A DNA stretch of 64,000 bases from an uncultured bacterium (GTDB taxonomy: Bacteria > Pseudomonadota > Gammaproteobacteria > Burkholderiales > SG8-39), in the NCBI GenBank assembly GCA_965233125.1, contig CBDDRQ010000222.1, positions 7,806 through 71,805 of the forward strand. The letters run 5' to 3'. Below are positions 2,608-49,373 of the stretch, in pieces. The position numbers were made by a program, and so were the translations under genes. The notes below the pieces were generated by a model. The model had not been told where the DNA came from. It worked only from the letters and a program-made list of their open reading frames with translations, and made no database searches. How positions within the stretch are numbered: position 1 is the first letter of the stretch; each line of letters opens with the position of its first letter.

Positions 2608-2609
2608 AG

Positions 2610-4103: not shown

Positions 4104-4122
4104 GCAGCAGCTTCTCTGGAGT

Positions 4123-14170: not shown

Positions 14171-14235
14171 GCTGTAAATATGCACTGCGCGTGCATATCG
14201 CGCAACCCGCGGCGACAGGAAACCTTGAAGACCGC

Positions 14236-24759: not shown

Positions 24760-24766
24760 GTGGCCA

Positions 24767-25978: not shown

Positions 25979-25979
25979 C

Positions 25980-26753
25980 TTAGGCGTGGACCCCGCCAGG
26001 TGCTTCGTGCTTTATCCACATCCGTCCCGTGTAGTCGATTCGATTCAAGAGAATCGCTTCTCCACAGAAAAACTCGTCAACTGCTTTCCTTGAGCCCCGC
26101 CAATGCCCGTAGTCGTCAACGATTAATACACCGCCATTGGAAAGTCGAGGGTAAAGATGAACTAGCTCATGCAGCGTTGACTCATACCAGTCTGTATCAA
26201 GCCTTAGTATTGAGATGTTCTGCGGGGCTTGATCCGGGATCGTAAGTTTGACGTCACCTTCAACTAAGTGGATCTGCTGCTTTGCGTACTGCGTGCGCGC
26301 TAAGTTCTCTTCCACTTCAGCTCGCGACGCATAGCACCACGAGCTGGAGTTCTTTGAGTTCGGCTTGCTCGCGAAAGGTACCGACGCCGGTTCCCCGTTG
26401 TACGACTCGTCGATATCTGTTGGAGGGGTCATGCCTGCAAACGTGTCAAAGAGATAGAGATGTCGGTCATAGATTCCAACTTGTTGGAGAGTGAGCGCAA
26501 CAGCCATCATGCTTCCCCCCTTCCAGACGCCGCACTCCACGATACTTCCGACAACGTTGGCGCGAGAGACGTATCGAACAGCCTCGATAAGTGCGAATAT
26601 CCTTTCGGGGCTCGTCATGGTGAAGGGCTGGACCTTCCTTATGACGTCGATAGCTCTATCATCGAAATCCACGGGAAAGTCGCGCGTGCTACTCCGACGC
26701 GTAAGGTCGTACCCCGCGCTCTTCAGGATGTACTTTACGAACCCTCTAATCAT
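25980..26753 (-). CDS. TylF/MycF/NovP-type sugar O-methyltransferase
   Basis: VECGVWKGGS...LFDTFAGM...LRLDTDWYEST...GGVLIVDDYGHW, the macrocin-O-methyltransferase pattern. Confidence 0.75.
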   Translation of the reverse strand: MIRGFVKYILKSAGYDLTRRSSTRDFPVDFDDRAIDVIRKVQPFTMTSPERIFALIEAVRYVSRANVVGSIVECGVWKGGSMMAVALTLQQVGIYDRHLYLFDTFAGMTPPTDIDESYNGEPASVPFASKPNSKNSSSWCYASRAEVEENLARTQYAKQQIHLVEGDVKLTIPDQAPQNISILRLDTDWYESTLHELVHLYPRLSNGGVLIVDDYGHWRGSRKAVDEFFCGEAILLNRIDYTGRMWIKHEAPGGVHA

Positions 26754-26809
26754 CAGTGTCCCTGCTTATTGATATGGCCATATCTCACTTAGGCTTGTAG
26801 CGGTGCTTC

Positions 26810-28054
26810 TTACAGCAGGCCAGTCCGACGCTGGCTCAACAGTGATGTCGCGGTGACTGAGAGTACCAACGCACCGATGCCAGTAGCCATGCCAGCGCCA
26901 AACATGCCCCAACGCTCTGCCATTGGGACGGTGACCACGCCCAGAACGACTAGTTGGCCTACCCGTGCCGCTATCGTTCGCCCGTGTACCGAAGCGGCCA
27001 TGGCAATCGCCTTAGTATTTTCAAACCAAAGAGTGGAAAGAGCATAAAGAATTAGGCCAGGAACAATGAGCGCCCCTATGGCGAAGGTCGGGCCAAACAC
27101 AAACGTTACCGCTTCAACTGGACTGTAGAGGTATGCAAGCCCCGCAGCAGCAAGTACCAGCGTGATCGCTACAGGTCCGGTGCGTAGAATTCTTCGAAAC
27201 ACTGCCGGTAGATTGGCGGCGCGGCAATAGAAGGAGTACAGGACTGTCTGTATTGGGGCCATAAAGAAATTCAGCACTCCGTCGATCGCACGTCTAACGG
27301 CGAAATACGCTCCAAGTGACTCCTGCCCAAGAGTGTATCCAACAAGTGCAAAGTCCAACCTTAGCGAGATCCTTTCAAGAGCGTTGAGTATCCACAACGA
27401 GCGGGAATAGCTCCACAGAAGCCTTAGTGCTCTCGAATTTGCGCGCAAGGACCAGGGACGCTTGTACAGAAACAGGAAAGCCGCAAACGGCACCAAGCTC
27501 GTAAGCAGATCCCGGATGGCGATTGAGATTATTCCGCCGGACTGATGAAGTACGGCAAGCCCTGCAATCACGCCGGTAGTAGCTGCGATTACCTGCACGA
27601 GCGCAATTGGCCGGTAGTTGAGTTGCGCTCTGAAATCTGCATCCAGCACAAACGAAAACCAACCTAGTACACGTGCACTTGCAATAAGAAGAACCGTCAG
27701 CGATACCCCATCACTGTTCCATTGCGCATCCTCCAACGCGATCTTGTATGCGAGCAGGCTAAGGATTAGGAACGTGACTGTCTGCAGTACCGTCGCTAAT
27801 AGCACCGCAGCTCTAAGGTTGGCGTCGTCCGGGTCGCGTATTAGGACCTGATTGAATCCGAACCCTACGAGTGCTGCGACTATCTCTGTAGAGATGACGA
27901 CGCGGGCATACACTCCCATCGCATCAGAGCCGAGTGCCCGCGCGAATATGGCCAACGCAAGCAAGTTGATCACTCCAGATATCGCGGTGGCGGCGAACAT
28001 CCACGAAGCGTTACGACGGACGGTGTCTAGCAATGGCTGCATAGAACTTGCCAT
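26810..28054 (-). CDS. wzx: Oligosaccharide-unit flippase (Wzx / polysaccharide biosynthesis protein family)
   Basis: 414 aa with ~12 TM helices. Position is within a Wzy-type locus. Confidence 0.6.
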   Translation of the reverse strand: MASSMQPLLDTVRRNASWMFAATAISGVINLLALAIFARALGSDAMGVYARVVISTEIVAALVGFGFNQVLIRDPDDANLRAAVLLATVLQTVTFLILSLLAYKIALEDAQWNSDGVSLTVLLIASARVLGWFSFVLDADFRAQLNYRPIALVQVIAATTGVIAGLAVLHQSGGIISIAIRDLLTSLVPFAAFLFLYKRPWSLRANSRALRLLWSYSRSLWILNALERISLRLDFALVGYTLGQESLGAYFAVRRAIDGVLNFFMAPIQTVLYSFYCRAANLPAVFRRILRTGPVAITLVLAAAGLAYLYSPVEAVTFVFGPTFAIGALIVPGLILYALSTLWFENTKAIAMAASVHGRTIAARVGQLVVLGVVTVPMAERWGMFGAGMATGIGALVLSVTATSLLSQRRTGLL

Positions 28055-28159
28055 GTGACGTTCATACAGCGACCGATCGTCCGTGGCGCAATGCGAAATT
28101 CGCGGTTGTGAGAGCTATGTTGCATACAACGCCGGGCTCTAGCCTCTCGCGCACGTGAT

Positions 28160-28882
28160 CTAGGTTTTCCGAACCCTAGCGCAGTAACCGAGAGTCCAGT
28201 GAGATAGATATCCAAAGGCTCCCTTTAGACCTGTCCCCACGACCGGATTACGAGTAACTCGACGCCACGTAAAGGCGACATATGCACGGTGAAGAAACCC
28301 GAACATGAATCGAGAGACGACCAGTTTAATGGGCACAAATAGTCCGCCAACTAACGGCGCGCGACTGGCAGCCTCGAGGATTCCGAGTAAGAGAAACTCG
28401 AAAAGAACCAACATCACGGCCGTCGCCTCTCCGCGCCGGACTATGCACTCGATTCGCAAGGATGTCCGACTAAGTAGTTCGGCCATGCCAAATTCTGTAG
28501 CGCGAAAGTAGTCGTGCGGTACCTCGTGGATCATGAAGTTAAGGGGCCACGTCATAAGCAGCAGTCCCCTTGGCTTAAGCACGCGGGTAATCTCCGCAAG
28601 CACTCTTGCGGGATCAGAGATGTGTTCGATTACTTCTGTTAAGAGGACGATGTCGAAGGAATCGCTTGAAAAGGGAAGGTTCTTGGCATCGACCCTTACA
28701 TCTACCTCGGATCGCATCTCGTAATCTGCGGCGATGCACTTAGCGCATCGATCCTTGTAGATATACATATAGGGCTTCATCCCGCATCCAAGGTCTAGAA
28801 GGGCCGTGCCCGGTCCCTCCGGAAGGCGGGCGAGTTCACTAGTCAAAAACTTCTCAATAAATGCTTCGTTAAGAGTGGACAT
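28160..28882 (-). CDS. Class I SAM-dependent methyltransferase with C-terminal membrane anchor
   Basis: LLDLGCGMKP, FDIVLLTEVIEHISDP and LKPRGLLL, followed by two hydrophobic helices (VMLVLFEFLLLGILEAA, LVGGLFVPIKLVV). Confidence 0.7.
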   Translation of the reverse strand: MSTLNEAFIEKFLTSELARLPEGPGTALLDLGCGMKPYMYIYKDRCAKCIAADYEMRSEVDVRVDAKNLPFSSDSFDIVLLTEVIEHISDPARVLAEITRVLKPRGLLLMTWPLNFMIHEVPHDYFRATEFGMAELLSRTSLRIECIVRRGEATAVMLVLFEFLLLGILEAASRAPLVGGLFVPIKLVVSRFMFGFLHRAYVAFTWRRVTRNPVVGTGLKGAFGYLSHWTLGYCARVRKT

Positions 28883-28942
28883 GTGGCGTGGCGCTGGGGT
28901 ACCGGCAGCGGAAGCGACCTGCGAATGGCTTGCGAGGCCGGC

Positions 28943-30328
28943 CTAGTTCACCTGGACCGCTGGCGCACCGAGGTGGCTATGCCTAGGCTTCCGACCTTGG
29001 CGCGTCATAAAACGTCCGATGAGATAGTAAAAAGGGAGCAGCTTGATTAGTGCACCGAGATACAGCGCCGCGGTCCCTCCAATGTAGAGAATCGTGGGCA
29101 GAAGTATGGCGTACAGCAGTGTCCAAGTTTCCTTGTGGCTCGACCGTCTAATCTGACAATAGAGCAGTCCAAAAATGAAACCTAGGAGAGCCACAGGCAG
29201 AAGCCCGGCCCATCCAAAATTCAGATAGGCCTCGCCAAAGAAGGTGACAGAAATCGAGGTTAGCCAGTCACTGGACCAAACCATACCGGCCGCATGGCCG
29301 AAGTCGGTGCCGTAATGAAGATTGGGTTTGTCGGGCCAAATGAATCTAGGAATTAATCCAAGCAGCACCCCGCCGTAGCTAGTCCCTAGCATCACATCCC
29401 AATCGCCCTCCTTCAACAGTCTTACGCATGCACTGAGGGGCTCAAGCAGCGAAATCCTGCTCAACGCAACGTCCGAACCAGAGATATCGACTTTACTGCT
29501 ACCAGAAGCAATCTCCCCAGCGGCGACCGTCGCGGTATGGAGTAGCTCCTTGGTGTCGCCGCCGAGTTCGATCGCTACGCGATACTGATGAATAAGCGGG
29601 AATAGAAAAAACAGAAACGTTAGAAGTGAAACGGCGATCGGCACGGACGGCAATCGCTTGGCAACCAAATACCTGATCATGATGGGCAACAACAGAGCCA
29701 GGATGGTTTCGAGCTTTCGTCCTGAAGGTAACCAGTAAGCTAGTTCTCCTAAGACAACCAACAAAAGTGCCGAACCCCAGAATCGCGTCGTCGGGGCCCC
29801 CAAACGCCAGTAGCGAATTGAAAGGATGCAAGCCACGTGGAGAGGGAACTGCTCGAAAAGACGAATCGCAGCGTAGAACGGTCCTTCGAGTTCGCCTTGC
29901 ACGGTTCGTGCAATCTGGAAGTAAGCGTTGCTCTCAACTATGTGGATTCGCGCGATCCACCCAATCGCTAAAAGGACTAGGGATACAGAGCAGATCCGAA
30001 AGGAACTCCAGTACTTTGGGAGCCCGGGACGATTGCGAAAGGCTAACCGTGTAGTGGCGAACTGGGTACCAAGATGAACTGCGATTAGAGCCAACGTGGC
30101 GAAAAGTATGGCTTGGACTGCGTATGCTTCGTTGTCCCGATTAAGGAAGATGTGCGAGGCCAATCCCGAGCCGAGAAGAAGCCCGGGAACCGCAAAGTGA
30201 AGCAGCACAAGTCCCGCGTAAAGGGAAGCCGGTGATGCAAGATCCGCATGCAAAGATCTTCTATGCAGAAACGCGATGGCATATGTCGCCAGTACTGCCG
30301 ATGCTACGACCAGTAGGGCATCAGTCAT
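28943..30328 (-). CDS. Multi-pass membrane protein, putative polysaccharide polymerase (Wzy-like)
   Basis: 461 aa with >=10 TM helices and a large loop. Lowest GC in the cassette. Sits between wzx and the chain-length determinant. No motif-level proof. Confidence 0.5.
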   Translation of the reverse strand: MTDALLVVASAVLATYAIAFLHRRSLHADLASPASLYAGLVLLHFAVPGLLLGSGLASHIFLNRDNEAYAVQAILFATLALIAVHLGTQFATTRLAFRNRPGLPKYWSSFRICSVSLVLLAIGWIARIHIVESNAYFQIARTVQGELEGPFYAAIRLFEQFPLHVACILSIRYWRLGAPTTRFWGSALLLVVLGELAYWLPSGRKLETILALLLPIMIRYLVAKRLPSVPIAVSLLTFLFFLFPLIHQYRVAIELGGDTKELLHTATVAAGEIASGSSKVDISGSDVALSRISLLEPLSACVRLLKEGDWDVMLGTSYGGVLLGLIPRFIWPDKPNLHYGTDFGHAAGMVWSSDWLTSISVTFFGEAYLNFGWAGLLPVALLGFIFGLLYCQIRRSSHKETWTLLYAILLPTILYIGGTAALYLGALIKLLPFYYLIGRFMTRQGRKPRHSHLGAPAVQVN

Positions 30329-30396
30329 TCCCCTGCCCCAATTGAAGTAGTCTCAAAAGACGGTGACGCTGAAGGAGCGAGATGAATTGCAACTTC

Positions 30397-31611
30397 TTAT
30401 GGCGCGCGAAGATGCTTCTGTAAGGATGAAAGTCTTGAATTCTGGATAGGATCTGATTTCGCTCTCTCCAGAAACTCCCTGAAGAATGCCCATAGAATCG
30501 CCAAGAAGATTCCGGCAAGTGTCGCCACTACTATGGTTAGCGCCCGCTTCGGCTTGCTCTTATGGTCCGGAGGGACGGCGAGATCCACCACTTGAACGAT
30601 CAGAGACTCTCTTGCTTCATCGATTTTGGCAGCTTCGAATTGCTTCGCAAGAACCTCGAACATCGACTCTGCATACTTCACGTCTCTATAGCTCCGAAGA
30701 TACTCCAGACCGGCTTCTGGAACCCTGCCTGTTGGCAACAAGACATCGCCGCCTCCGGCAATCTGCGCACGCTCGAGTTTCGTTAACTCCTTTCGAAGGC
30801 CGCTGAGCTGCTCCCGCGCTCGGACATATTCGATGTTCTTCTCGGTGGCGAACGTTCGCATAGCCTGTAGCTCCACCTCTTTGGCGGATATCTGTGCTCT
30901 AAGAGTTGCCACGGCCTCGATGATCGCTTTCCCTTGTTCGTCCAACTTGATGAGGCCGGTCTTCTCCTGTGTCGTCTTCAACGCGACTTCGGATCGACGC
31001 AACTCTTCTTTGGCCTGCTGGAGTTGACGTTCAAAAAAGAGGCGCCGCTGACCAGCTTCTGTGACGGCGAGCGTTTGCGTCAGCTTGTCCAAATTTTCTA
31101 CATATGCGTTCGCCACAGCCGCCGCTCGCTTAGGATCTTCATCATCAAATGCAATGACTATTAGGCCGTCGCGGTTTGCTGCCACATTGCTATTGTCGGC
31201 GAACTCTTTGCGTGTTTCTTCCATCGTATCCTTGTCATAGAGCTTTCGAAGTTCGAAGCGCTCGATGATGTTGTCCGCTACCGTGCGACTCTTAAGCATA
31301 CCTACATAGAGATCCGTTGAGTCTTTGATGCCGAGAGCGCTTCCGGCCAACCCGGACAAACCGCTCAACTGGCCGAGCAACATCGCGGCTGAGGTCTGGC
31401 TTTTCTGCGGAGGTAAGACCCGAGCGACGCCGGTATAGATATTGGGCAGCAAAAGCACGACTATTGCTGATAGCACTGCAGCGGCAACTGTTAGGGCGAT
31501 GATCATCACTTTGTGTTTCGCCAAGATGATCAATACATCGATAAAACCACCTTCGTCATCGTCCTTCTCGGGGGAGCCTGGTTCCTGCACATCTTTGCCA
31601 GAACGATCCAT
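30397..31611 (-). CDS. Polysaccharide co-polymerase (Wzz/KpsE-like chain-length determinant, no kinase domain)
   Basis: N-terminal Wzz motif (IDVLIILAKHKVMIIALTV...PNIYTGVARVLPP), a long coiled-coil, and a C-terminal TM helix. Confidence 0.7.
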   Translation of the reverse strand: MDRSGKDVQEPGSPEKDDDEGGFIDVLIILAKHKVMIIALTVAAAVLSAIVVLLLPNIYTGVARVLPPQKSQTSAAMLLGQLSGLSGLAGSALGIKDSTDLYVGMLKSRTVADNIIERFELRKLYDKDTMEETRKEFADNSNVAANRDGLIVIAFDDEDPKRAAAVANAYVENLDKLTQTLAVTEAGQRRLFFERQLQQAKEELRRSEVALKTTQEKTGLIKLDEQGKAIIEAVATLRAQISAKEVELQAMRTFATEKNIEYVRAREQLSGLRKELTKLERAQIAGGGDVLLPTGRVPEAGLEYLRSYRDVKYAESMFEVLAKQFEAAKIDEARESLIVQVVDLAVPPDHKSKPKRALTIVVATLAGIFLAILWAFFREFLERAKSDPIQNSRLSSLQKHLRAP

Positions 31612-31618
31612 TTCAGCC

Positions 31619-33877
31619 TCAGTCCTTGATAACCTTTAACGCGGCCGCTCCCAAGCCAAACTGATAGAAAATCTGCGTCCAATCCCTTAGGTCCTTCGTC
31701 CATGTCGTGCGCTCGAAATCCTCTGGCACCACGATGGCATCACCCGGCATGAGGCGCACGCCAGAGACCGATGCGGTAAGAAAGCCGGACTGCCGGGCGC
31801 TCACGACCGAACCATCGGCGCGCAGCACGTACATGCTCGACTTGTCCGCCTGCTTCCGCGGACCGCCGGCGAGGCTGAGGTAGTCGCCGACGTTCTTGTC
31901 CGGGCTGTAGAGGAACGACGATTCGTTGAAGACGGTGCCGAAGACGCTGACCTGCGAAGGCTCCTGGGGGACGTAGAGGCGGTCGCCGTCTTCGAGGGCG
32001 ATGTCGGGGAGGTCGGCGACCTTCGGGTTCTCGGGCATCTGGAGGACGATGCGGCCGGTGGGTTGCAGGGTGCGAAGGCGGGTGACGAGTGAGCGCTGGG
32101 CTTCGGCTTCCTGCTTGAGGGCGCTGGCGTCTTCTGGTGAGACGACGCTCTGAGCGCGGGTGACGGCGGCGCGGGAGACGTCTTGCTCGAGCTGATCGAC
32201 GGCTTTGCGGAGGCGCTCTTCCTGCTCGCGGCGGGTGGATTCGCGGTTGAACTCGGCGCCGAAGAGGTAGGCGCGGGGGGTCACGCCGCCGACGCGGGCG
32301 ACGAGCTGGCGGAGGGTTTCCTTGGGCTGGGCCTGGTACACGCCGGCGAAGTTGAACTCGCCCTCGAGGCGCACGACCACGGGGCGGCGGGCGGCGGGGG
32401 CGGCGATGTCGCGCTTGGAGAAGACGGTGACGATGTCGCCGGACTCGAGGGCGAGGTTGGCGGCGGCGTCGTTCTCGAGGACGGCTCTTCCGAGGTTGAA
32501 GGGGATGAGGGTGGTGGTGAGGTCCTGCTGGTTCTGGCGCTCGATGACAGCGTAGTCCCAGTTGATCTCGTCGGCGAGCTGGCGCACGTTGGTGGAGAGC
32601 TGGCCGGGGGAGCTTACGTCGGTGCGCACGGCGAGGTTCTTGCGCCGGTAGTAGTCGGGAGTGACGAGCGCGTCCTTGTCGGGGATCAGGTCGAGGATGC
32701 GCATGCCGGGGCGGTGCGGGTAGCGGAGCGGCGTGGCGACGTTGCCGCGCAGGGTCACGGCGTTCTCGAACTTCGGCTGGATGGCGAGCACGGAGACGAG
32801 GTCGCCGTCCTTCATCGCGCGCTGCGCGGCGTTGAAGTCGAGGTCGACCTGCTCGACGACGCGCGTCCGGCGCTCGTCGATGCGCTCGATGGTGGCCTGG
32901 CTCGACTGGGCGGTGGTCGACATGCCGCCGGCGTAGCCGACCAGGGTGCCGAGGCTGGTCGCGCCCTTCAGCTCGAAGATCGCCGGCTGGTTGACGCTGC
33001 CCGAGACCGCGGCGAGCGGGCCGATCGGAGGGAAGACGATGACGTCGCCCGGGAGGAGCGGCGCGTCCTTGCTCTTGTCGCCCGAGAGGAGGAGGTCGTA
33101 CATGTCCATCTCGGTGACGGTGCGGGTGCCGCGCTTGAGTTGAACGGCGCGCATCGAGCCGGCGGGCGAGGGACCGCCGGCGGCGAAGATGGCGTTCACC
33201 AGCGTGCTTAGCGAGCTCACGGTGTAGCTGCCCGGGCGCTTCGCGTAGCCGACCACGAACACCTGCACCGCGCGGAGCTGGCCGAGGGTGACGAGGATGT
33301 CGAAGTTGCGGAAGTTGCGGGCGACGGCGCTGCGCACGTAGCTGGTGAGGTCGTCGTACTTGATGCCGGCGACGTTGATGCTGCCAACGCGCGGGATGTT
33401 GATGGTGCCGTTCCTGTCGACCACGGCGCGGTAGTCGACGTCGATCTGGCCCCAGGCGCGCACCAGCAGCTCGTCGCCCGGCCCGATCACGTAGTCGGCG
33501 GGGACGGGGATGTTCTCGACCGGCGCGAAGGTGCTCGGCGCATCGTCGAACAGGTTCGTGCCGAAGATCGGCAGGCGCTGGCCGGTGGAGGCCTCGATGA
33601 AGCGCTGGAATTCATTGGTCGGCGCAGCCTGGCGCGGCGCGCGCTGCTCGCCTTCGTGCGTGATCGGAGCGGCAGCGGGCTTCGCGACCGCGGGCGGAAC
33701 GAACGGCGGCGGCGCGTTGGTGATGGTGGGGGTGCTCACCGGCGCCGCCTGCACCGGCGGGATCTGCGTCTGCCCGGGCGCCTGCGGCGGCTCGCCGGGG
33801 CGAAGGAACTGCGCGTGAGCGGCGGCGGCGATGCCGGCGCCCATCAGTACAGCGATGATTCTTGTTGAGAACTTCAC
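31619..33877 (-). CDS. Outer-membrane polysaccharide export protein (Wza/KpsD-type OPX, multiple SLBB domains)
   Basis: Signal peptide. Poly_export motif (IGPGDELLVRAWGQ...DRNGTINIPRVGSINVAGI). Repeated SLBB-like LxxGDxIxVP units. Confidence 0.8.
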   Translation of the reverse strand: MKFSTRIIAVLMGAGIAAAAHAQFLRPGEPPQAPGQTQIPPVQAAPVSTPTITNAPPPFVPPAVAKPAAAPITHEGEQRAPRQAAPTNEFQRFIEASTGQRLPIFGTNLFDDAPSTFAPVENIPVPADYVIGPGDELLVRAWGQIDVDYRAVVDRNGTINIPRVGSINVAGIKYDDLTSYVRSAVARNFRNFDILVTLGQLRAVQVFVVGYAKRPGSYTVSSLSTLVNAIFAAGGPSPAGSMRAVQLKRGTRTVTEMDMYDLLLSGDKSKDAPLLPGDVIVFPPIGPLAAVSGSVNQPAIFELKGATSLGTLVGYAGGMSTTAQSSQATIERIDERRTRVVEQVDLDFNAAQRAMKDGDLVSVLAIQPKFENAVTLRGNVATPLRYPHRPGMRILDLIPDKDALVTPDYYRRKNLAVRTDVSSPGQLSTNVRQLADEINWDYAVIERQNQQDLTTTLIPFNLGRAVLENDAAANLALESGDIVTVFSKRDIAAPAARRPVVVRLEGEFNFAGVYQAQPKETLRQLVARVGGVTPRAYLFGAEFNRESTRREQEERLRKAVDQLEQDVSRAAVTRAQSVVSPEDASALKQEAEAQRSLVTRLRTLQPTGRIVLQMPENPKVADLPDIALEDGDRLYVPQEPSQVSVFGTVFNESSFLYSPDKNVGDYLSLAGGPRKQADKSSMYVLRADGSVVSARQSGFLTASVSGVRLMPGDAIVVPEDFERTTWTKDLRDWTQIFYQFGLGAAALKVIKD

Positions 33878-34301: not shown

Positions 34302-34478
34302 TTCCCCTCCCTCGGGGCCCGGATTTCTGGTCCCCGAGTATAGGAACGCCGGCGGCGCGCGCGGCTCCCATGCGGCGGCGCTCGCCTGCCGGTCGTCGGA
34401 AACTCGTCGTGCGTTTTTGACAACCGCGGAAGGCGCGCTTATCGTGCGCGCACAATAAGTCGGAAGAACGGAGTCGAG

Positions 34479-35381
34479 ATGGCGAGCGCGCAAGCCGGCC
34501 TGGCACGGGACGAAGAGCTCTCGGCGGGCCGCGATACCGCGGTGCTTTTCGCCGGCATCGCGAGCCGCGACCCCGCGGGGGGCATCGCGAGCGCTCCGGC
34601 AGTGCAGGAGGCCGTCGGCCGCGTGGTGGAGGTGCTCGAGCAGGCCACGCAGCTCAGCAACGGCCGCGTCCTCAGCCGCCGCGAGCTGGAGGTCATGGCG
34701 CTCTTCCCGTCGCCCGAGGCCGCCGCGCAGGCGGCCCTGCGCATGCGCAAGTATGCGCAGGCGCTGCCGCCGCTGCCCGAAAGCCTCGGCATGCGCATCG
34801 CTTTCCACTGGGGGCCGGTCCGCCAGCGCGGCGAAGAGGTTTTCGGCGACAGCGTCAACCTCGCCCTGGAGCTCGTCGATGCGGCGACGCAGGGGCAGAT
34901 CCTCGTCTCGGAGCAAGCCGCTTCGGCGCTCGGCCCGGCGCTGCAGCAGGAGGTGCGGCCGCTGCAGCAGGTGGCGACGAAGGCGGGCGGGCGCATCCTC
35001 CTCGGGGAGCTCGTGCCGGGCTGCGACGTGCGGGTCTTTTCGCCGGGCCGGCCCAGGGTGGCGCTGCATCTCGCCTACCGGAAGAAAAGCGTTGCCCGGC
35101 GCAGGCGGGCCGACACGGCGACCGTCGGCAGGGGCGAGGAGTGCGACCTCGCCGTCGAGGACCGCGGCGCGTCCAGGAAGCATTGCACCTTCTCGCTGGA
35201 GAGCGCCGCCTGCATGCTGCGCGACCACAGCGCCAATGGCACGTTCGTGACCGTCGAGGGGCAAAAGGAAGCGGCGCTGCGCGGCGAGCAGATCGCGCTC
35301 GCCGGCCGCGGCAGGATCTCCTTCGGCCGCTCCGCCGCCACCACGGACGAATTCGTGCAGTACTCGTTCGACACACTTTGA
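34479..35381 (+). CDS. Class III nucleotidyl-cyclase-like domain (catalytic residues lost) fused to an FHA domain
   Basis: Aligns along its whole length with 42911-43825. It has VLFAGIASRD in place of VLFADVSGST and RELEVMALF in place of TIGDEVMALF. FHA: VGRGEECDLAV...ASRKHC...DHSANGTFV. Confidence 0.75.
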   Translation: MASAQAGLARDEELSAGRDTAVLFAGIASRDPAGGIASAPAVQEAVGRVVEVLEQATQLSNGRVLSRRELEVMALFPSPEAAAQAALRMRKYAQALPPLPESLGMRIAFHWGPVRQRGEEVFGDSVNLALELVDAATQGQILVSEQAASALGPALQQEVRPLQQVATKAGGRILLGELVPGCDVRVFSPGRPRVALHLAYRKKSVARRRRADTATVGRGEECDLAVEDRGASRKHCTFSLESAACMLRDHSANGTFVTVEGQKEAALRGEQIALAGRGRISFGRSAATTDEFVQYSFDTL

Positions 35382-35441
35382 CACGCGCGCCCCGGACCCT
35401 ATGGTTGAATGCAGCGAATTCAAGCCACCCAGGGGAGTCGG

Positions 35442-36281
35442 ATGGCAGGCCGCGAGACCACCGTGCTGGTCACTGGAGTCGTCGCTGACGGCGAGGCCGG
35501 CGCCGAGGGTGTGGAGGATTACGTGGCGCGGCTGGCGCAAACGCTGGCCCACGCCGCGCTCGTCAGCGGTGGGCGTGTCGCGGGCCGGCGGGAGCGCGAC
35601 GTGACGGCGCTCTTTCCCACGCCCGACGCCGCCGCGAGCGCTGCTCTGCGCATGCACGCGTACGCGCTCGCGCTACCTCCCATGGCCGCGAGGCTTGGCC
35701 TGCGCATGGCCGTGCATGGCGGGCCAGTTGGGCGCGGCGACGAGATCTCCGGCCGCACCATCGATCTCGCTCTGGAGCTGCTCGACGCGGCCGGCGCGGG
35801 CGAGGCGCTGATTTCGGGGCATGCCGCCGCAGGGCTCAGCCCGGGTCTGGGGCACTTCGTCGGGCCCCTCGGCTCGGGCCCGGAGGGCGCCAGCCGGCTG
35901 CTGCTCGGCGAGCTCGTCTTCCGCAACGAGGCGAAGCTCTACGCGCAACGGGCGCAGCGCACGCGCCTTCGCCTTGACTATCGATCGAAGAGCATCGTGC
36001 GAGGCCGGGAAGGGGATGCGGCGACCATCGGCAGCGACGCGGCGTGCGACCTCGCCGTGGAGGGGCAGGGCGCGGCGCGCCAGCATTGCACCATCCTGCG
36101 GCGCCAGGGCGCCTACCTGCTGCGCGATCACAGCGCCAGGGGCACTTTCGTGACGGCGGAGGGCGGCGCGGAGCTCGCCGTGCGCGGCGCGGAAATCGTG
36201 CTGACGGGGCGGGGAGTCATCTCCTTCGACCAGGCGGGCGCCGAGAGTAACGGGGTAGTGCGCTATAGCTGCGAACGCTGA
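35442..36281 (+). CDS. Second cyclase-like (degenerate) / FHA-like protein, tandem paralogue
   Basis: VLVTGVVADG, RERDVTALF and IDLALELLD replace the catalytic motifs. The FHA signature is also eroded (IGSD, AARQHC, SARGTFV). Start at ATG 35442 with RBS aggggag. Confidence 0.7.
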   Translation: MAGRETTVLVTGVVADGEAGAEGVEDYVARLAQTLAHAALVSGGRVAGRRERDVTALFPTPDAAASAALRMHAYALALPPMAARLGLRMAVHGGPVGRGDEISGRTIDLALELLDAAGAGEALISGHAAAGLSPGLGHFVGPLGSGPEGASRLLLGELVFRNEAKLYAQRAQRTRLRLDYRSKSIVRGREGDAATIGSDAACDLAVEGQGAARQHCTILRRQGAYLLRDHSARGTFVTAEGGAELAVRGAEIVLTGRGVISFDQAGAESNGVVRYSCER

Positions 36282-37538: not shown

Positions 37539-37931
37539 CTATCGCGCCGGCTCGGCGTGGGGCGCGTAGAGCGCGACGAGCTCGAGCAGGCGGTCCGCGA
37601 GCACGGGCTTTCTCAGGTAAGCCACGGCGCCGACCTTTCTGGCCCGGTCGCCCGAGTCCTCGCTCGAGGTGAGGAACGCCACCGGGATGTCGCGGGTGCG
37701 CGGGTCGGCTCTCAGCGCCGCCGCGAACTCGAATCCGTCCATGTACGGCATCTCGACGTCGAGGAGGATCAGTGCGGGCAGGCACTGCAGCACCAGCCGG
37801 CCGGCAGCAACCGCGTCCTCTGCAGTGCGCGCCTCGTAGCCGGCGTTCGTCAGGTGGATATCCAGGAGCTGGCGCAGGCAGCGGTCGTCGTCGACGACGA
37901 GCACGTAGACGCCGGCGCTCACGCGCGGCGC
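37539..37931 (-). CDS. Single-domain response regulator (CheY-like receiver)
   Basis: VLVVDDD, LILLDVEMPYMDG, AFLTS and YLRKP, a full receiver signature. GTG start at 37931; the ORF-track start 38228 is probably too long. Confidence 0.75.
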   Translation of the reverse strand, partial: APRVSAGVYVLVVDDDRCLRQLLDIHLTNAGYEARTAEDAVAAGRLVLQCLPALILLDVEMPYMDGFEFAAALRADPRTRDIPVAFLTSSEDSGDRARKVGAVAYLRKPVLADRLLELVALYAPHAEPAR

Positions 37932-38039
37932 GCTCGCCCGGGCTGGTGCAGTCCGAGCGAGGTCCTGTACCAGCAAGGCCGGGCTCAATCGCGTCCTCCT
38001 CGACAAAGACTGTACGCGATATCGCTGCAAGTTGAATGG

Positions 38040-38555
38040 GTGTTTTGTACTATTTCGTGGACGGACACAGTCGTCCGCAGCAGCGAGCCAACCGGGGGCG
38101 CCATCGAGCCAGAAGAGGGAGGCGAGAAGAATCCGAGCGACGAGGTCGCGGCGTGGCTGCAGGAGGTCGGCAAGCGACGGCCCAGGCCTCGCGCGCCCGC
38201 CGAATCGACGGAAGAGCTGCTCACGCACCTGGAGCGGGTGTCGGGTACGAGAATCCGCAGCCGCGAGGACATCGATGCGTTCCTGAGCGGCGTCGCGCGC
38301 AAGGCCCGGGAAAGGCGCGCCGGCGGAGCATTCAAGAACGCGCTGCTCGGCGCCCTGCTGGTGATCGCCATCCTGCAGTACTACTTCATCGACGTGCAGC
38401 TGCAGATCCTCATGCAGCCGTCGCTGACGGTCTTCGCCCCGGCGAGGTATCCGGGCCCGGCACGGCCGCAGCGCATCTCCGGGACGCCGGGCGGCGCGGG
38501 CGTTACTCGAACGCGACCTCCACTCGAGCCACGTGCTCGTCGTATTGCGCTATGA
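38040..38555 (+). CDS. Small membrane protein, conserved paralogue family (start uncertain)
   Basis: ELLTHLERVSGTRIRSREDIDAFLSGVARKARERR...ALLGALLVIAILQYYFIDVQLQILMQPSLTVFAP matches 61355-61672. No ATG in frame; the GTG at 38040 is a guess. Confidence 0.5.
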   Translation: MFCTISWTDTVVRSSEPTGGAIEPEEGGEKNPSDEVAAWLQEVGKRRPRPRAPAESTEELLTHLERVSGTRIRSREDIDAFLSGVARKARERRAGGAFKNALLGALLVIAILQYYFIDVQLQILMQPSLTVFAPARYPGPARPQRISGTPGGAGVTRTRPPLEPRARRIAL

Positions 38556-38808
38556 GCAAATGCAGCGCGGCGCGGTTGCCGCGCCTGGCGTTGAGCTCGA
38601 TCAGGCGCGCGATCGTAGCGATGCGCACGAAGCCGTAGGAGCCCGAGGCGCCCTTGATGCGATCGCCGAGGAGGCGCAGGCCTTCGAGGTCGTCCGACAG
38701 AAGCCCGACGCGCAACGCGTGCCCGTCCTTGCGCCGGTTCTCCAGGAATGCCGGCATCAGCTCCTGGAGCTCCCTCGGGACAACCACGCGGTGGGCGTCA
38801 TCGCTCAT
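38503..38808 (-). CDS. Hpt-like four-helix protein with Asp at the phospho-His position
   Basis: LMPAFLENRRKD...LLGDRIKGASGSYGF aligns with the Hpt consensus ..aHslKGsa...G. The residue three before KG is D, not H. Confidence 0.6.
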   Translation of the reverse strand: MSDDAHRVVVPRELQELMPAFLENRRKDGHALRVGLLSDDLEGLRLLGDRIKGASGSYGFVRIATIARLIELNARRGNRAALHLLIAQYDEHVARVEVAFE

Positions 38809-39633: not shown

Positions 39634-40650
39634 ATGCTCCTGGTGACCGGCGGGGCCGGGTTCATCGGCTCCAACTTCGTGCTCTCGACGATCGCCCGGA
39701 CCGGCGAGCCGGTCGTCAACCTCGACAAGCTGACCTACGCCGGCAACCTGCGCAGCCTCGCGCCGCTCGCCGGCGACCCGCGCCACGTGTTCGTGCAGGG
39801 CGACATCTGCGACCGCGCGCTCGTGCGCGGCCTGCTCGCGGAGCACCAGCCGCGCGCCATCGTGCACTTCGCGGCGGAAAGCCATGTCGACCGCTCGATT
39901 CTCGGGCCGGCGCAGTTCGTGCAGACCAACGTGGTCGGCACGATGTGCCTGCTCGAGGAGGCGCGCTCGTATTACGCGTCCCTCGGCCCGCACGGCCAGC
40001 GCTTCCGCTTCCTGCACATCTCGACCGACGAGGTGTTCGGCACGCTGGGACCGCGCGACCCGGCGTTCACGGAGGCCTCGCCCTTCGCGCCCAACAGCCC
40101 CTATGCGGCCTCGAAGGCCGGGGCGGACCACCTGGTGCGCGCCTACTTCCATACCTACGGGCTGCCGGCGCTCATCACGAACTGCTCGAACAACTACGGG
40201 CCGCACCAGTTCCCCGAGAAGCTGATCCCGCTCATGATCCGCAGCGCGCTCGCCGGCGAGCCGCTGCCGGTGTACGGCGACGGCCGCAACGTGCGCGACT
40301 GGCTCTACGTGGACGATCATTGCGACGCCCTCCGGCTGGTGCTCGAGAAGGGCACCGTGGGCGACACCTACAACATCGGCGGCGAGGCCGAGCGCGCCAA
40401 CATCGACCTGGTGCACGCGCTGTGCGCTCTCCTCGATGACGCGAGCCCGCGCCCGGGCGGGCGTTATGCGGATCTCATCTCGTTCGTCAAGGACCGGCCC
40501 GGGCACGACCGGCGCTACGCGATGGACATCGCGAAGATCCGGCGCGAGCTCGGCTGGCAGCCGCGCGAGAGCTTCGAGTCCGGGCTGCAGAAGACCGTGC
40601 TCTGGTACCTCGAGCACCTGGAGAGCCACTTCGCGCCGGAGACGGCGTGA
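39634..40650 (+). CDS. rfbB: dTDP-glucose 4,6-dehydratase
   Basis: [31 protein letters not shown] and NCSNNYGP. Confidence 0.9.
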
Positions 40651-41522
40651 AGGGCATCGTGCTCGCCGGGGGCTCGGGCACGCGCCTTTACCCCGTCACC
40701 CAGGCGATATCGAAGCAGCTCCTGCCGGTCTACGACAAGCCGATGGTGTACTACCCCCTCAGCACGCTCATGCTGGCGGGCATCCGCGACATCCTGCTCA
40801 TCTCGACGCCGCAGGACACGCCGCGCTTCGCGGAGCTGCTGGGCGACGGCGGCAAATGGGGACTGGACATGCGCTATGCCGTGCAGCCGCGCCCGGAGGG
40901 CATCGCGCAGGCTTTCCGCATCGGCCGCGATTTCGTCGGCCCGGACCGCGTCGCGCTGGTCCTGGGCGACAACCTGTTCTACGGCCACGACCTGACCGAG
41001 CTGCTGCAGCGCGCCTCGCGGCGCGAGCAGGGCGCGACCGTGTTCGCCTATCCGGTGCGCGACCCGCAGCGCTACGGCGTGATCGACTTCGACGAGCGCG
41101 GCAAGGCACGCAGCATCGAGGAGAAGCCGGCGAGCCCGAAGTCGCGCTACGCGGTCACCGGGCTCTACTTCTACGACAACCGGGTGCTCGAGATCGCCGC
41201 GGCGCTGGAGCCCTCGGCGCGAGGCGAGCTCGAGATCACCGACGTCAACCGCGCCTACCTCGCGCGCGGCGAGCTGGAAGTCGTGCCCATGGGCCGCGGC
41301 ATGGCCTGGCTCGACACCGGCACGCACGAGGCGCTGCTCGAGGCCGCGCATTTCATCGAGACCATCGAGCGGCGCCAGGGGTTGAAGATCGCCTGCCCGG
41401 AGGAGATCGCCTGGCGCATGGGCTTCATCGACGCCGGCGAGCTCGAGGCGCTCGCGCGGCCGCTCGCGAAGAGCGGCTACGGCGAGTACCTGCTGCGCGT
41501 GCTCTCCGATCGCCTGTTCTAG
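40647..41522 (+). CDS. rfbA: Glucose-1-phosphate thymidylyltransferase
   Basis: [29 protein letters not shown], and PERYGV-type RYGVIDFD. Confidence 0.9.
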
Positions 41523-42065
41523 ATGCGGCTCGCGCCGACCGAGATCCCCGGCGTGGCGCTGCTCGAGCCGCGCGTGTTCGAGGACGCGCGCGGCTTCAAC
41601 TTCGAGAGCTACAACCGCCGTGCCTTCCGCGAGCTCGCCGGCACCGATGTCGAGTTCGTGCAGGACAACCGCTCGGGCTCCGCGGAGAACGTGATCCGCG
41701 GCCTGCACTACCAGGTCGTGCGGCCGCAGGGGAAGCTGGTCTGCGCCCTGCGCGGCGAGATCTTCGACGTGGCGGTCGACCTGCGCCGCAGCTCGCCCAC
41801 CTTCGGCCGATGGGCCGGCTTCCGCCTCTCGGCGGCGAACCGCCGCATGGCCTGGATCCCGCCGGGCTTCGCGCACGGCTTCCTCGCGCTTTCCGCCGCC
41901 GAGGTCCTCTACAAGCTCACCGACTTCTGGGCCCCCGAGCACGAGCGCACCATCCTCTGGAACGACCCGGCGCTCGCGATTGCGTGGCCGCTCGAGGGCT
42001 CGCCCATCCTTTCGGAGAAGGATGCGAAGGGGACGAGGCTCGAGGCAGCGGAGCTCTTCCCGTGA
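41523..42065 (+). CDS. rfbC: dTDP-4-dehydrorhamnose 3,5-epimerase
   Basis: FEDARGFNFESYN, RGLHYQ and PPGFAHGF. Confidence 0.9.
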   Translation: MRLAPTEIPGVALLEPRVFEDARGFNFESYNRRAFRELAGTDVEFVQDNRSGSAENVIRGLHYQVVRPQGKLVCALRGEIFDVAVDLRRSSPTFGRWAGFRLSAANRRMAWIPPGFAHGFLALSAAEVLYKLTDFWAPEHERTILWNDPALAIAWPLEGSPILSEKDAKGTRLEAAELFP

Positions 42066-42907
42066 GGATCCTGCTCACCGGCCGCACCGGCCAGGTGGGC
42101 TGGGAGCTCGAGCGCAGCCTGCGGGGCCTGGGGGAAGTCCTCGCCACCGACCGTGCCGCCCTCGACCTCGCCGATAGCGACGCCATCCGCCGCGCGGTGC
42201 GCGAGGCGAAGCCCGATGTGATCGTCAATGCCGCGGCCTATACCGCCGTCGACAAGGCGGAGCGCGAGCCGGCGCGGGCGCTGCAGATCAACGCCATGGC
42301 GCCCGGGGTGTTCGCCGAAGAGGCGCGCCGGCGCCGCGCGCTTCTGGTGCATTACTCCACCGACTACGTTTTCGACGGGCAAAGCTCGCAGCCTTACGTC
42401 GAGGACGATGTGCCGCACCCTCTGAACGCCTACGGCAAGACCAAGCTCGCCGGCGAGCAGGCGCTTGCCGCCACGGGATGCAGGCGGCTCCTGCTGCGCT
42501 CGAGCTGGGTCTATGCGCCAAGGGGCCGCAACTTCTTCCTCGCCATCGCGGAGAAGGCGCGCGCCGGGGGGCCGCTTCGCGTCGTGGACGACCAGCACGG
42601 CGTGCCCACCGAGAGCCGCTTCATCGCGCAGACGACGGCACGCCTCATCGAGCGCGAAGCCGAAGGAACCTTCCACGTCGTGCCGGGCGGGGCCACCACC
42701 TGGCACGGCTTTGCGGGCGCCATCGTCGCGGGGCTCGGGGTCGACGTGCCGGTCGAGGCCATCGCGTCGAGCGCGTTTCCCGGCGCCGCGCGGCGTCCCG
42801 CGTACTCGGTGCTCGCCAATCGCAAACTGGCGGGCTCGCTCGGGACGCCGCTGCCGGCGTGGCAGGATCTGCTCGGGCCCTGTATCGCGAGGTGGAAGGC
42901 CCGCTAG
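42062..42907 (+). CDS. rfbD: dTDP-4-dehydrorhamnose reductase
   Basis: GTG 42062 (GTGA overlap with the rfbC stop). ILLTGRTGQVGWEL, NAAAYTAVDKAE, STDYVFDG and YGKTKLAGE. The 823-aa ORF in the track is an upstream GC artefact. Confidence 0.88.
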   Translation: MRILLTGRTGQVGWELERSLRGLGEVLATDRAALDLADSDAIRRAVREAKPDVIVNAAAYTAVDKAEREPARALQINAMAPGVFAEEARRRRALLVHYSTDYVFDGQSSQPYVEDDVPHPLNAYGKTKLAGEQALAATGCRRLLLRSSWVYAPRGRNFFLAIAEKARAGGPLRVVDDQHGVPTESRFIAQTTARLIEREAEGTFHVVPGGATTWHGFAGAIVAGLGVDVPVEAIASSAFPGAARRPAYSVLANRKLAGSLGTPLPAWQDLLGPCIARWKAR

Positions 42908-42910
42908 AGC

Positions 42911-43825
42911 ATGAGCACGACCAGGGACGCCACGGTACTCTTCGCCGACGTGAGCGGCAGCACGGCGCTCTACGAGAAGGCGGGGGACGCCGCGGCGGCC
43001 AGGGCGATCGAGGGCTGCCTCGGCGCGATGCGCCTGGCGGTGGAGGCGAACCGCGGGCGCGTGGTGAAGACGATCGGCGACGAGGTGATGGCGCTCTTTC
43101 CCTCGCCGGATGCCGCGGCGGCGGCGGCGGTGCGCATGCACCTCGGCGTGGAGGCGCTTCCCGCGGTGGGGGGCAGCGCGCTCGGGGTGCGCATCGCTTT
43201 CCACGCCGGGCCGGTGGTGCAGCGCGAGGACGACGTCTTCGGCGACACGGTCAACCTCGCCTCCCGCCTCGCCGGGCAGGCGATCAAGGGACAGGTACTT
43301 ACTTCCGAAGCGACGGCGGCGATGCTCAGTCCGCTGCTGCGCAGCTCGACCCGGCGGCTCTACCCGATCCAGGTCAAGGGCAAGGCCGACGAGGTGGCGC
43401 TCTACGAGTTCGTCTGGCGGCGCAGCCCGGACGTGACCGACGTGGCGGGCCGCCTGTCCGTGCCGCGCGCGCCGGCGCTCGTGCTGCGGCTGCGCTACCG
43501 GGGGCGCGAGGTGATGGGCCGGCGGCTCAACGAGTCGCTGGTGATCGGGCGCGATCCCGGCTGCGATCTGGTGATCGCCGACATCAAGGCCTCGCGCCAG
43601 CATTGCAGCATCGAGCGGCGCGACGGCCAGTTCGTGCTGCGCGATCACAGCGCGAACGGCACCTACCTCACCGTGGCGGGCGAGCCCGAGCTCGCCTTGC
43701 AGCGCCAGGGGTGCGCCCTGCGCGGGCACGGCTGGATCGCGCTCGGCCTGCCCCGCTCGCCGGCGCGGGACGCGGTGGAGTATTTTTGCGAGGCCGTGGA
43801 AGATCCGCCGGACTTACCACCTTGA
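42911..43825 (+). CDS. Class III adenylate/guanylate cyclase (catalytic motifs intact) fused to an FHA domain
   Basis: VLFADVSGSTALYE, VKTIGDEVMALF, FGDTVNLASRLAG. FHA: IGRDPGCDLVI...ASRQHC...DHSANGTYL. Starts 3 nt after the rfbD stop. Confidence 0.8.
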   Translation: MSTTRDATVLFADVSGSTALYEKAGDAAAARAIEGCLGAMRLAVEANRGRVVKTIGDEVMALFPSPDAAAAAAVRMHLGVEALPAVGGSALGVRIAFHAGPVVQREDDVFGDTVNLASRLAGQAIKGQVLTSEATAAMLSPLLRSSTRRLYPIQVKGKADEVALYEFVWRRSPDVTDVAGRLSVPRAPALVLRLRYRGREVMGRRLNESLVIGRDPGCDLVIADIKASRQHCSIERRDGQFVLRDHSANGTYLTVAGEPELALQRQGCALRGHGWIALGLPRSPARDAVEYFCEAVEDPPDLPP

Positions 43826-43941
43826 AATTCCCGGTTCCATAACGGGAAATTCGAGGGTGCCGGTGGCTAGCGCCAGGCCGGCGGCCTTGACACGTGGATG
43901 CGGCGTTTATACATTACAAGCATACATCGCGAGATCCGACC

Positions 43942-44187
43942 ATGATTCGTACCCAGATCTATCTCAGCCCCGTGCAGCAGAAGGCGCTCAAGGCGCTGGC
44001 CGCGAGGACGGGCCGGACGCAGAGCGAGCTCATCCGGGACGCGATCGATCGATTCGTCGGTCAGCGCAAGGCCTCCGAGCGGGGCCCCGTCGTCAAGCGC
44101 TCAGCCGGACTCTGGAAGGACCGGACCGACCTGCCCGACTTCGCCGCCTTGCGGCGCGAAGCCGATCGCGTCGCGACGCGCGCTTAG
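43942..44187 (+). CDS. vapB: Ribbon-helix-helix (CopG/VapB-type) antitoxin
   Basis: MIRTQIYLSPVQQKALKALAARTGRTQSELIRDAIDRF, directly upstream of a PIN gene. Confidence 0.7.
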   Translation: MIRTQIYLSPVQQKALKALAARTGRTQSELIRDAIDRFVGQRKASERGPVVKRSAGLWKDRTDLPDFAALRREADRVATRA

Positions 44188-44202
44188 CGCCGCCGCCGGG
44201 CG

Positions 44203-49370: not shown

Positions 49371-49373
49371 TTG

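Follow-up and report, generated by a model that had tools for sequence, protein, structure and literature searches.

Class III cyclases are the main generators of cyclic AMP (cAMP) and cyclic GMP in bacteria, and their control is understood for only a few domain combinations. In the present study, we analysed a stretch of 64,000 nucleotides from an uncultured member of the Burkholderiales (contig CBDDRQ010000222.1, positions 7,806 to 71,805; hereafter the window), in which three open reading frames (ORFs) encode proteins with a cyclase homology domain (CHD) followed by an FHA domain. Two of these genes, referred to as copies 1 and 2, lie in tandem, and the third, the live copy, lies 6.6 kb from the pair (Table 1). 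We found that both genes of the pair go back to a class III adenylate cyclase that carried an FHA domain at its C-terminus, that their products are catalytically dead as judged by the residues that define the enzyme, and that both are under purifying selection, that is, maintained and not decaying; the last conclusion is well supported. The pair consists of pseudoenzyme paralogues of a second-messenger enzyme, a known kind of protein, in a family that is uncharacterised.

The fold of the cyclase homology domain is the same as that of Ma1120 from Mycobacterium avium (Protein Data Bank (PDB) entry 4WP9), Rv1264, Rv1900c, and CyaC, which are the best sequence and structure matches of the window proteins. 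The live copy shares the full set of catalytic residues (D,K,D,D,N,R) with the minimal cyclases of the Ma1120 type, whereas copies 1 and 2 lack this set (with the exception of the Asn of copy 1) as well as the elements of the pocket, and they carry an additional FHA domain at the C-terminus. The combination of an FHA domain and a class III cyclase in one protein is also found in the Cya1-type cyclases of Synechocystis, which are catalytically active and have the FHA domain at the N-terminus; the same two domains thus occur in the reversed order compared with the window proteins.

Incomplete cyclase domains that are retained as partners have precedents in heterodimeric enzymes. In the C1/C2 domains of mammalian adenylyl cyclase and in the alpha/beta subunits of soluble guanylyl cyclase, degenerate residues form a non-catalytic regulatory half-site. 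However, dimers of the C1/C2 type are active, each subunit holding a complementary half, whereas the dead pair described here lacks both halves, and no combination of its members, whether with one another or with the live copy, would rebuild an active site. Besides this half-site, the closest functional analogy is with PelD, LapD, and FimX, degenerate GGDEF/EAL proteins that serve as non-catalytic regulators of exopolysaccharide and adhesion systems and are often encoded beside polysaccharide loci. These proteins differ from the pair in fold and in messenger, and they have kept their nucleotide site as receptors; no nucleotide contacts are left in the pocket of the dead cyclase domains, which argues against a receptor role for the latter.

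With respect to the FHA domain, two further systems are relevant. In GarA and OdhI of Actinobacteria, an FHA domain and a Thr residue in a flexible segment, phosphorylated by a kinase, form a self-binding switch, and FHA structures of these proteins are among the PDB matches. This switch resembles the model considered below for the live cyclase-FHA family, which involves a Thr residue in the linker and an adjacent Hanks-type kinase. GarA and OdhI differ in that they have no enzyme domain; in the live family, phosphorylation of the linker is only predicted, and the dead clade lacks the Thr segment. The cytoplasmic domain of YscD/PrgH (Pfam Yop-YscD_cpl) has the FHA fold without the phospho-Thr residues and, in this respect, is like the lineage of copy 2 (type B), which has lost the FHA arginine; the matches of all three window proteins to Yop-YscD_cpl are nevertheless weak and below the threshold, and the window offers no secretion-system context.

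Residues and folds of the tandem copies

The three proteins can be aligned from end to end at 40-48% identity (40-42% between either tandem copy and the live copy), in agreement with the single architecture that a preliminary description of the window had assigned to them. The FHA domain (Pfam PF00498) was detected above the cut-off of 20.7 bits in all three proteins (41.2, 36.9, and 49.7 bits). The score for Guanylate_cyc (Pfam PF00211) was 70.2 bits in the live copy, above the curated threshold of 21.9, and 21.2 bits in copy 1, slightly under it; the Pfam scan gave no Guanylate_cyc match for copy 2. Two observations favour the start of copy 2 at 35442, which had also been proposed previously, over the alternative at 35409 (290 amino acid residues): a GGGGAG Shine-Dalgarno sequence precedes it, and it agrees with the N-termini of orthologues (MAGRET…). 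The start of copy 1 at 34479 is preceded by a GGAG Shine-Dalgarno sequence. The G+C content at the third codon position is of the coding type (0.91 in copy 1 and 0.84 in copy 2), with the lowest content at the second position. Three sigma-70-like promoter sites were observed in the region against 0.2 expected. A CRP-type palindrome (TGTGA-N6-TCACA) near the promoters was considered and rejected: the window contains seven matches, fewer than the 11.4 expected, and the relevant intergenic regions contain no match.

The catalytic positions were read from a family alignment anchored to a hidden Markov model (HMM) and from alignments to Ma1120, a cyclase of solved structure. Six positions characterise class III cyclases: a metal-binding Asp, a substrate-specifying Lys, a second metal-binding Asp, a substrate-specifying Asp, and the transition-state Asn and Arg. 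The live copy has D13, K53, D57, D108, N115, and R119 at these positions, i.e., the canonical D,K,D,D,N,R. The corresponding residues are G,S,L,E,N,E in copy 1, in which the Asn is the sole survivor, and G,G,R,E,D,E in copy 2. The two metal-binding Asp residues are accordingly Gly and Leu in copy 1 and Gly and Arg in copy 2, and the other four positions, K,D,N,R in the live copy, read S,E,N,E and G,E,D,E, respectively. The alignment to Ma1120 gives the same correspondence (FTDIEEST / KSQGDGFM / FGRNVAMAARV). The replacements sit at the exact positions in both the HMM-anchored and the Ma1120 alignments, which rules out that the catalytic residues are merely shifted. Every motif quoted for the three copies in the preliminary description is present, and the loss of both metal-binding Asp residues and the transition-state Arg from the tandem copies, which it had pointed out, was confirmed by both alignments.

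We then compared 147 live, 6 type A (the type of copy 1), and 16 type B sequences column by column. The GST..LYE..GD segment after the first metal-binding Asp and the lysine of the KGK motif are conserved in the live sequences and replaced or deleted in the dead types; the GST..LYE..GD segment is missing from type B. New residues have become fixed in the former active site, namely Arg at the position of T54 (1.00 in type A and 0.88 in type B), Glu at that of G56, Leu at 118, and Glu at that of R119. In addition, R67 and R68 are invariant (family alignment A3). Given these residues, no cyclase activity is expected for copies 1 and 2; as far as can be judged from their sequences, both have the fold of a class III cyclase but not the residues that define it, and as such they are pseudoenzymes derived from that family.

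The FHA phospho-Thr residues (GR, SR..H, and NG) are intact in copy 1 and in the live copy. In copy 2, they are replaced by GS, AR..H, and RG; this reading, given in the preliminary description as a loss of the triad, holds for copy 2 itself, but only the change from GR to GS is conserved in its lineage, and the other two positions vary. The type B motif reads TIGSDAACD, and the change to GS is invariant in the 16 type B sequences, down to 52% identity. The Ser residue is kept in about half of these sequences (AR is found in about half), and the Asn position is variable, with RG in only two of the 16. Essentially all family members except type B have kept GR/SR..H/NG, and among the 150 best cluster representatives GS is confined to type B. 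The loss of the FHA arginine is, from these alignments, a specific feature of the lineage of copy 2.

AlphaFold2 models of the two proteins, built on an alignment of 103 sequences, had mean pLDDT (predicted local distance difference test) values of 88.3 for copy 1 and 85.2 for copy 2, and each consisted of an alpha/beta domain of the cyclase type, a linker of low confidence, and a beta-sandwich. In Foldseek searches of the PDB, Ma1120 was ranked first for both copy 1 (template modelling (TM) score 0.86, E 8e-12) and copy 2 (TM 0.73, E 6e-08), followed by Rv1264, CyaC, CyaB, and Rv1900c. The copy 2 model also matched FHA domains, for example FHA-1 of Rv1747 (TM 0.79). The models thus predict that the cyclase-homology and FHA folds are kept in both dead copies, as had been supposed from the sequence.

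The cyclase-FHA family and its dead clade

Proteins of about 295 amino acid residues with a cyclase domain followed by an FHA domain are widespread and occur in metagenome-assembled genomes (MAGs) of soil Burkholderiales, in Azospirillum, Pelagibius/Kiloniellaceae, and Sideroxydans, and in others; the best locus among the GTDB representative genomes was 46% identical. A profile search against 1.84 billion cluster representatives yielded 1001 clusters at E ≤ 1e-30, and the family comprises about 1000 clusters at 50% identity. No model dedicated to this family was found in NCBIfam, and full-text searches of the literature brought up neither dead cyclase-FHA proteins nor a pairing between cyclase-FHA proteins and Hanks kinases.

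The canonical D,K,D,D,N,R set is present in 147 of the 189 sequences collected. Neighbour-joining grouped the degenerate sequences in a single clade of 21 members, every one of which is degenerate or partly so, and this clade is sister to the one that holds the live copy of the window. When relatives of copy 2 were added, the dead clade consisted of two sister subclades, type A and type B; the former has G-x-L/R-E/D-N-E at the cyclase positions and an intact FHA GR/SR..H/NG. The clade has diversified to about 45% identity, keeping its length, fold, and clade-specific invariant residues. A recent local duplication of the live copy was ruled out as the origin of the pair, as the dead copies belong to this separate, deep clade. 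Because at least two of the six catalytic residues are changed in 51 of the 150 best cluster representatives, the loss of catalysis within the cyclase-FHA family appears to be recurrent or ancient. The pair is no local oddity; uncultured Burkholderiales from soil harbour a sizeable clade of dead CHD-FHA proteins, to which the pair belongs. Both dead and live paralogues were found in four MAGs with more than one recovered locus (L007/L027, L012/L040, L016/L026, and L020/L033; L numbers designate the loci compared). At one of these loci, in a Burkholderiales MAG, a gene for an 862-residue protein with a cyclase domain, a STAND NTPase domain, and TPRs lies 3 kb upstream of the dead cyclase-FHA gene (L007, 4254-6842).

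Selection was estimated as the ratio of nonsynonymous to synonymous substitution rates (dN/dS) by the pairwise NG86 method in 24 orthologue pairs; the G+C content of the genome is 70%. The three type A pairs gave ratios of 0.29-0.40. The 21 type B pairs, in which dS reached values of up to 1.0, gave 0.27-0.45, and for the cyclase-domain parts alone the values were 0.22 and 0.28. These values are well off 1, and this check among orthologues, which the preliminary description had proposed, points to purifying selection. We found 11 orthologous ORFs on independent contigs, none with a frameshift or premature stop codon and 10 of them full-length. Where DNA was available, the orthologues were intact in 7 of 7 type B genes and in 3 complete type A genes, and a fourth type A gene (L089) ends at the contig edge. 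Uninterrupted ORFs were seen in the window and in L001, L002, L083, L084, L085, L086, L088, and L089. Since dN/dS remains at 0.27-0.45, the orthologous ORFs are uninterrupted, and the clade persists to about 45% identity, we conclude that the dead genes are maintained; the earlier view that the reading frames are intact and the genes not decaying is borne out.

A farmland metagenome contig (L001) contains the tandem pair at 84-85% identity together with the three small downstream ORFs and the convergent receiver gene described below, and the tandem pair with an identical spacing of 60 nucleotides occurs in L001, L088, and L089, and probably in the P0111 contig. In L083, L084, and L086, a type B gene is found without an adjacent type A gene.

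The live members have two features that bear on their control. Of 147 live members, 140 have an acidic-x-Thr motif ([DE]-x(1,2)-T) after a conserved Trp in the segment that links the cyclase domain to the FHA domain. In the dead clade, the motif is present in only 3 of 42 members, and most members have a deletion of four to seven residues at this site. The motif reads, for example, WQQSEDMTTLAS in live members and WRRSPDVTDVAG in the live copy of the window. In addition, 21 of 63 live loci and none of 11 dead loci have a gene for a Hanks-type Ser/Thr kinase at a distance of no more than 3 kb, in most cases immediately downstream (Fisher p = 0.028, uncorrected for phylogeny); the live loci concerned are L018-L049, L056, and L074. 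A tblastn search of the window with four Hanks kinase domains yielded no hit, and no Pkinase or PP2C family was found in any window ORF scanned against Pfam, in accordance with the previous statement that the window has no Ser/Thr kinase or phosphatase. In this widespread and uncharacterised family, the linker Thr and the Hanks kinase suggest that Ser/Thr phosphorylation may be coupled directly to cAMP synthesis.

Possible roles of the pair

Copies 1 and 2 are probably non-catalytic signalling adaptors, as far as their sequences indicate. As to the reading as a whole, that of a dead, folded, and selected clade acting as such adaptors, we lean towards it with reservations. In the live enzymes, the neighbouring Hanks kinase would phosphorylate the acidic-x-Thr motif in the linker, and the FHA domain would read the resulting phospho-Thr, switching the cyclase dimer on or off; we infer this control from the frequency of the linker motif (140/147) and of the kinase neighbour (21/63). 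In the dead clade, the loss of catalysis would have gone together with that of the linker Thr and of the kinase neighbour, which suggests that the members of this clade are no longer regulated enzymes. They would be non-catalytic adaptors whose cyclase domain is a scaffold for dimerisation and nothing more, whether in homodimers, in A/B heterodimers, or in dimers with the live paralogue. The phospho-Thr that type A would still read may belong to another protein, and the phosphorylated linker of the live copy of the window is the most obvious candidate; type B, without the FHA arginine, may bind a partner independently of phosphate. If a dead protein paired with a live one, both active sites of the dimer would be inactive, because each site of a class III cyclase is shared between the two subunits and neither half is present in the dead proteins; the net effect on cAMP synthesis would be inhibition or sequestration, not complementation. 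The module lies between polysaccharide export genes and the rml operon with the live cyclase gene. Because of this position, and because of the receiver, the Hpt protein lacking its His, and the three small conserved ORFs (see below), control of exopolysaccharide production is the likely output.

If the dead paralogues regulate the live enzyme or polysaccharide production, cyclases would join the bacterial second-messenger enzymes that have dedicated pseudoenzyme regulators, for which the degenerate GGDEF/EAL proteins of c-di-GMP signalling set the precedent. The live, reader-only (type A), and fully dead (type B) paralogues in a single locus form a natural dissection set, with which the proposed phospho-Thr control is testable. 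A more elaborate version, which we consider quite unlikely, is that a phospho-signalling module of cyclase, phospho-Thr reader, and Hpt has turned into a complex that is independent of catalysis and phosphorylation: type A would capture the kinase-phosphorylated linker of the live enzyme, and type B and the Hpt protein with Asp in place of His would lock the receiver and the products of the small ORFs in a fixed state, gating both cAMP output and exopolysaccharide production. If true, this would represent a new regulatory logic, in which class III cyclases are controlled by dedicated dead paralogues that read the phospho-switch of the enzyme.

Several points weigh against an adaptor role. The dN/dS values of 0.3-0.45 represent only moderate constraint, and the tree is a neighbour-joining tree without support values. 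No kinase is encoded in the 64-kb window as a source of phospho-Thr, and phosphorylation of the linker Thr is putative in every family member that has this residue. An obligate A/B heterodimer is unlikely, because three loci have a type B gene with no type A gene beside it. There is no single conserved partner; the neighbours in the wider dead clade are unrelated housekeeping or transport genes (those for a DEAD-box helicase, an EamA transporter, a 3-hydroxyisobutyrate dehydrogenase-type NAD-binding protein, and an MFS transporter). Finally, every mechanistic step beyond the proteins being dead, folded, and conserved is inferred.

The alternative that fares best is that the dead proteins are dominant-negative partners, which only titrate the live cyclase-FHA protein into inactive dimers, with the FHA domain being irrelevant or serving for co-localisation. 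Class III cyclases are obligate dimers with sites formed from both subunits, and the dead copies lack both the metal-binding Asp residues and the K/D/N/R set, so that any mixed dimer would be dead at both sites; a live paralogue lies close to the pair in the window, and dead and live paralogues co-occur in the four MAGs mentioned above. However, the identity to the live copy is only 40-42%, and compatibility of the dimer interfaces has to be presumed. Moreover, simple titration explains neither the strict conservation of the type A FHA pocket against its fixed loss in type B nor the persistence of two distinct dead types. We consider this explanation unlikely on balance; inactivation of mixed dimers is also a component of the adaptor reading.

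Another alternative is that the degenerate pocket at the dimer interface of the pseudo-cyclase binds a small molecule, such as ATP, cAMP, or another metabolite, and that the proteins are ligand sensors. Mammalian adenylyl cyclase has a forskolin site, and degenerate GGDEF receptors exist, both of which parallel this reading. The new residues fixed in the former active site (Arg 54, Glu 56, Leu 118, and Glu 119) and the invariant R67 and R68 would fit such a site, and cyclic nucleotide (cNMP)-binding proteins are encoded nearby, both in the window (55992-58391 and 60153-60698) and in L083. However, both metal-binding Asp residues, K53, D108, R119, and the KGK lysine are lost, type B lacks the segment that follows the first Asp, and the pocket has become more acidic (Arg to Glu and Gly to Glu), which is unfavourable for nucleotides. 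A sensor of this kind is very unlikely, and the option of a nucleotide sensor in the preliminary description is disfavoured in particular, as the elements of the pocket that contact the phosphates and the base are all gone.

That the fold now serves a different reaction by means of new residues is highly improbable: the clade does have specific invariant polar residues (R67, R68, and Glu at the former positions 56 and 119), but no metal ligands remain, and types A and B differ at several of the catalytic positions (Leu and Arg at 57; Asn and Asp at 115), which is unexpected for a shared site. Least credible of all is that the genes are decaying pseudogenes, i.e., recent duplicates of the live cyclase gene heading for loss with frames intact by chance; the loss of the catalytic residues, the weak or absent Pfam cyclase matches, and dN/dS values above those typical of housekeeping genes would agree with decay, but the 11 uninterrupted ORFs, the dN/dS values at dS up to 1.0, the diversification of a clade that keeps its length, fold, and invariant residues, the high-confidence predicted folds, and the contrast with a truly decayed cNMP-binding gene nearby all speak against it.

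Genomic surroundings

The features around the pair are listed in Table 1. The small ORFs, the receiver, the Hpt protein with Asp for His, wza, and rml show synteny across the window, L001, L083, L085, and L086; the metagenome contigs used for this comparison are short. Judging from residues, the region holds several signalling domains that are without their chemistry.

Table 1. Features of the region around the tandem cyclase-FHA genes (positions in the window)
Feature	Position	Strand	Remarks
Wza-like polysaccharide export protein	31619..33877	-	Pfam Poly_export + SLBB; divergent from the pseudo-cyclase pair
Sigma-70-like promoter match, upstream of type A	34417..34445	+	Consensus match only, 10/12 positions
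Type A pseudo-cyclase/FHA protein (copy 1)	34479..35381	+	300 aa; cyclase homology domain dead as judged by residues, intact FHA phospho-Thr residues
Sigma-70-like promoter match, upstream of type B	35378..35405	+	Consensus match only
Type B pseudo-cyclase/pseudo-FHA protein (copy 2)	35442..36281	+	279 aa; cyclase domain dead as judged by residues, FHA Arg lost
Small conserved ORF, 75-82 aa	36414..36662	+	Weak YdaS-family Pfam match only
Conserved ORF, 147 aa	36672..37115	+	Same putative operon; dN/dS 0.21 vs L001
Conserved ORF, 120 aa	37163..37525	+	Same putative operon; 97% identical to L001, dN/dS 0.23
Stand-alone response-regulator receiver	37539..38228	-	Pfam Response_reg 72.5 bits; convergent with the pseudo-cyclase operon
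Hpt-domain protein, Asp for phospho-accepting His (LGDRIKGAS)	38503..38808	-	Pfam Hpt; alignment to PDB 7c1i
cNMP-binding gene remnant, ~30 codons	38884..38952	+	Intact at the same position in L083
Small ORF, 85 aa	39366..39623	+	Sub-threshold Trm112p-like Pfam match; syntenic in L083, L085
rmlB-rmlA-rmlC-rmlD (dTDP-rhamnose pathway by Pfam families)	39634..42907	+	Ends 3 nt before the live cyclase-FHA gene
Live cyclase-FHA paralogue	42911..43825	+	304 aa; D,K,D,D,N,R, intact FHA, linker motif WRRSPDVTDVAG

Downstream of the pair, the 75-residue ORF lies directly 3' of the type B gene in the window as well as in L001, L083, L084, L086, and L089. Only 16 homologues of this ORF were found, all at least 70% identical and none named. 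Sequence searches of Pfam, NCBIfam, and the PDB yielded nothing usable for the three small ORFs, and the 147- and 120-residue ORFs were without any family match. The true start of the convergent receiver gene is probably near 37922, giving a protein of about 127 residues. A receiver gene also adjoins dead or partly dead members in L001, L002 (here a type A gene), L009, and L020, and a live member in L014.

The Hpt domain itself is present in the neighbouring protein, and its H-x-x-K-G motif lacks the phospho-accepting His. The same replacement of His by Asp occurs in L083 and L085, where the gene adjoins type B, whereas the His is kept in the live-cyclase loci L040 and L033. Beyond the Hpt gene, the cNMP-binding gene remnant is a local example of true decay, in contrast to the intact ORFs of the dead cyclases. 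In L083, an intact gene of 158 codons for a cNMP-binding protein (3956-4432) lies between the Hpt gene and the 85-residue ORF, and an intact paralogue with 64% identity is present in the window at 60126-60599 on the minus strand. The cNMP-binding protein encoded at 55992-58391 (plus strand) has 799 residues and consists of a pyridine-nucleotide-disulphide oxidoreductase domain, two cNMP-binding domains, and a 4Fe-4S dicluster domain; its gene ends a multihaem cytochrome cluster (45936-55995) with HbpS-like and outer-membrane proteins.

Because its ATG lies 3 nucleotides past the rmlD stop codon (42905-42913), the live cyclase-FHA gene probably shares a transcript with rmlBACD. The synteny of rmlB is also seen in L083. 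A pair of genes for a ribbon-helix-helix antitoxin and a PIN-domain protein (VapBC type; 43894-44589, plus strand) lies directly 3' of the live gene. In L087, a gene for a FecR/OmpA-barrel protein (2552-3736) follows rmlD and precedes a homologue of the 75-residue ORF. FecR-domain proteins are also encoded in the window at 8185-8994 (minus strand) and 58475-59692 (plus strand), one of them fused to an OmpA-like beta-barrel.

On the other side of the pair, the divergent arrangement of wza is found in L001 and L086 as well. In L001, a gene for a beta-propeller protein of 743 residues (416-2647) lies between the start of wza and the type A gene, where the window has an intergenic region of 600 bp. 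Beyond wza is a polysaccharide cluster with genes for Wzz, Wzy, a flippase, and glycosyltransferases. A block of low G+C content at about 18000-32000 (0.53-0.58, against 0.66-0.73 elsewhere) contains these functions together with a TylF-type methyltransferase, a heparinase II/III-like protein, and GFO/IDH oxidoreductases, and looks like a horizontally acquired polysaccharide cluster. Two adjacent genes for ATPases of the AAA_14 + DUF4143 type (11607-12740 and 12998-14701, both on the minus strand) lie inside the polysaccharide region, and a gene at 5322-8111 (minus strand) encodes a fusion protein of 929 residues with a YjbH exopolysaccharide-biosynthesis domain and a PAP2 phosphatase domain.

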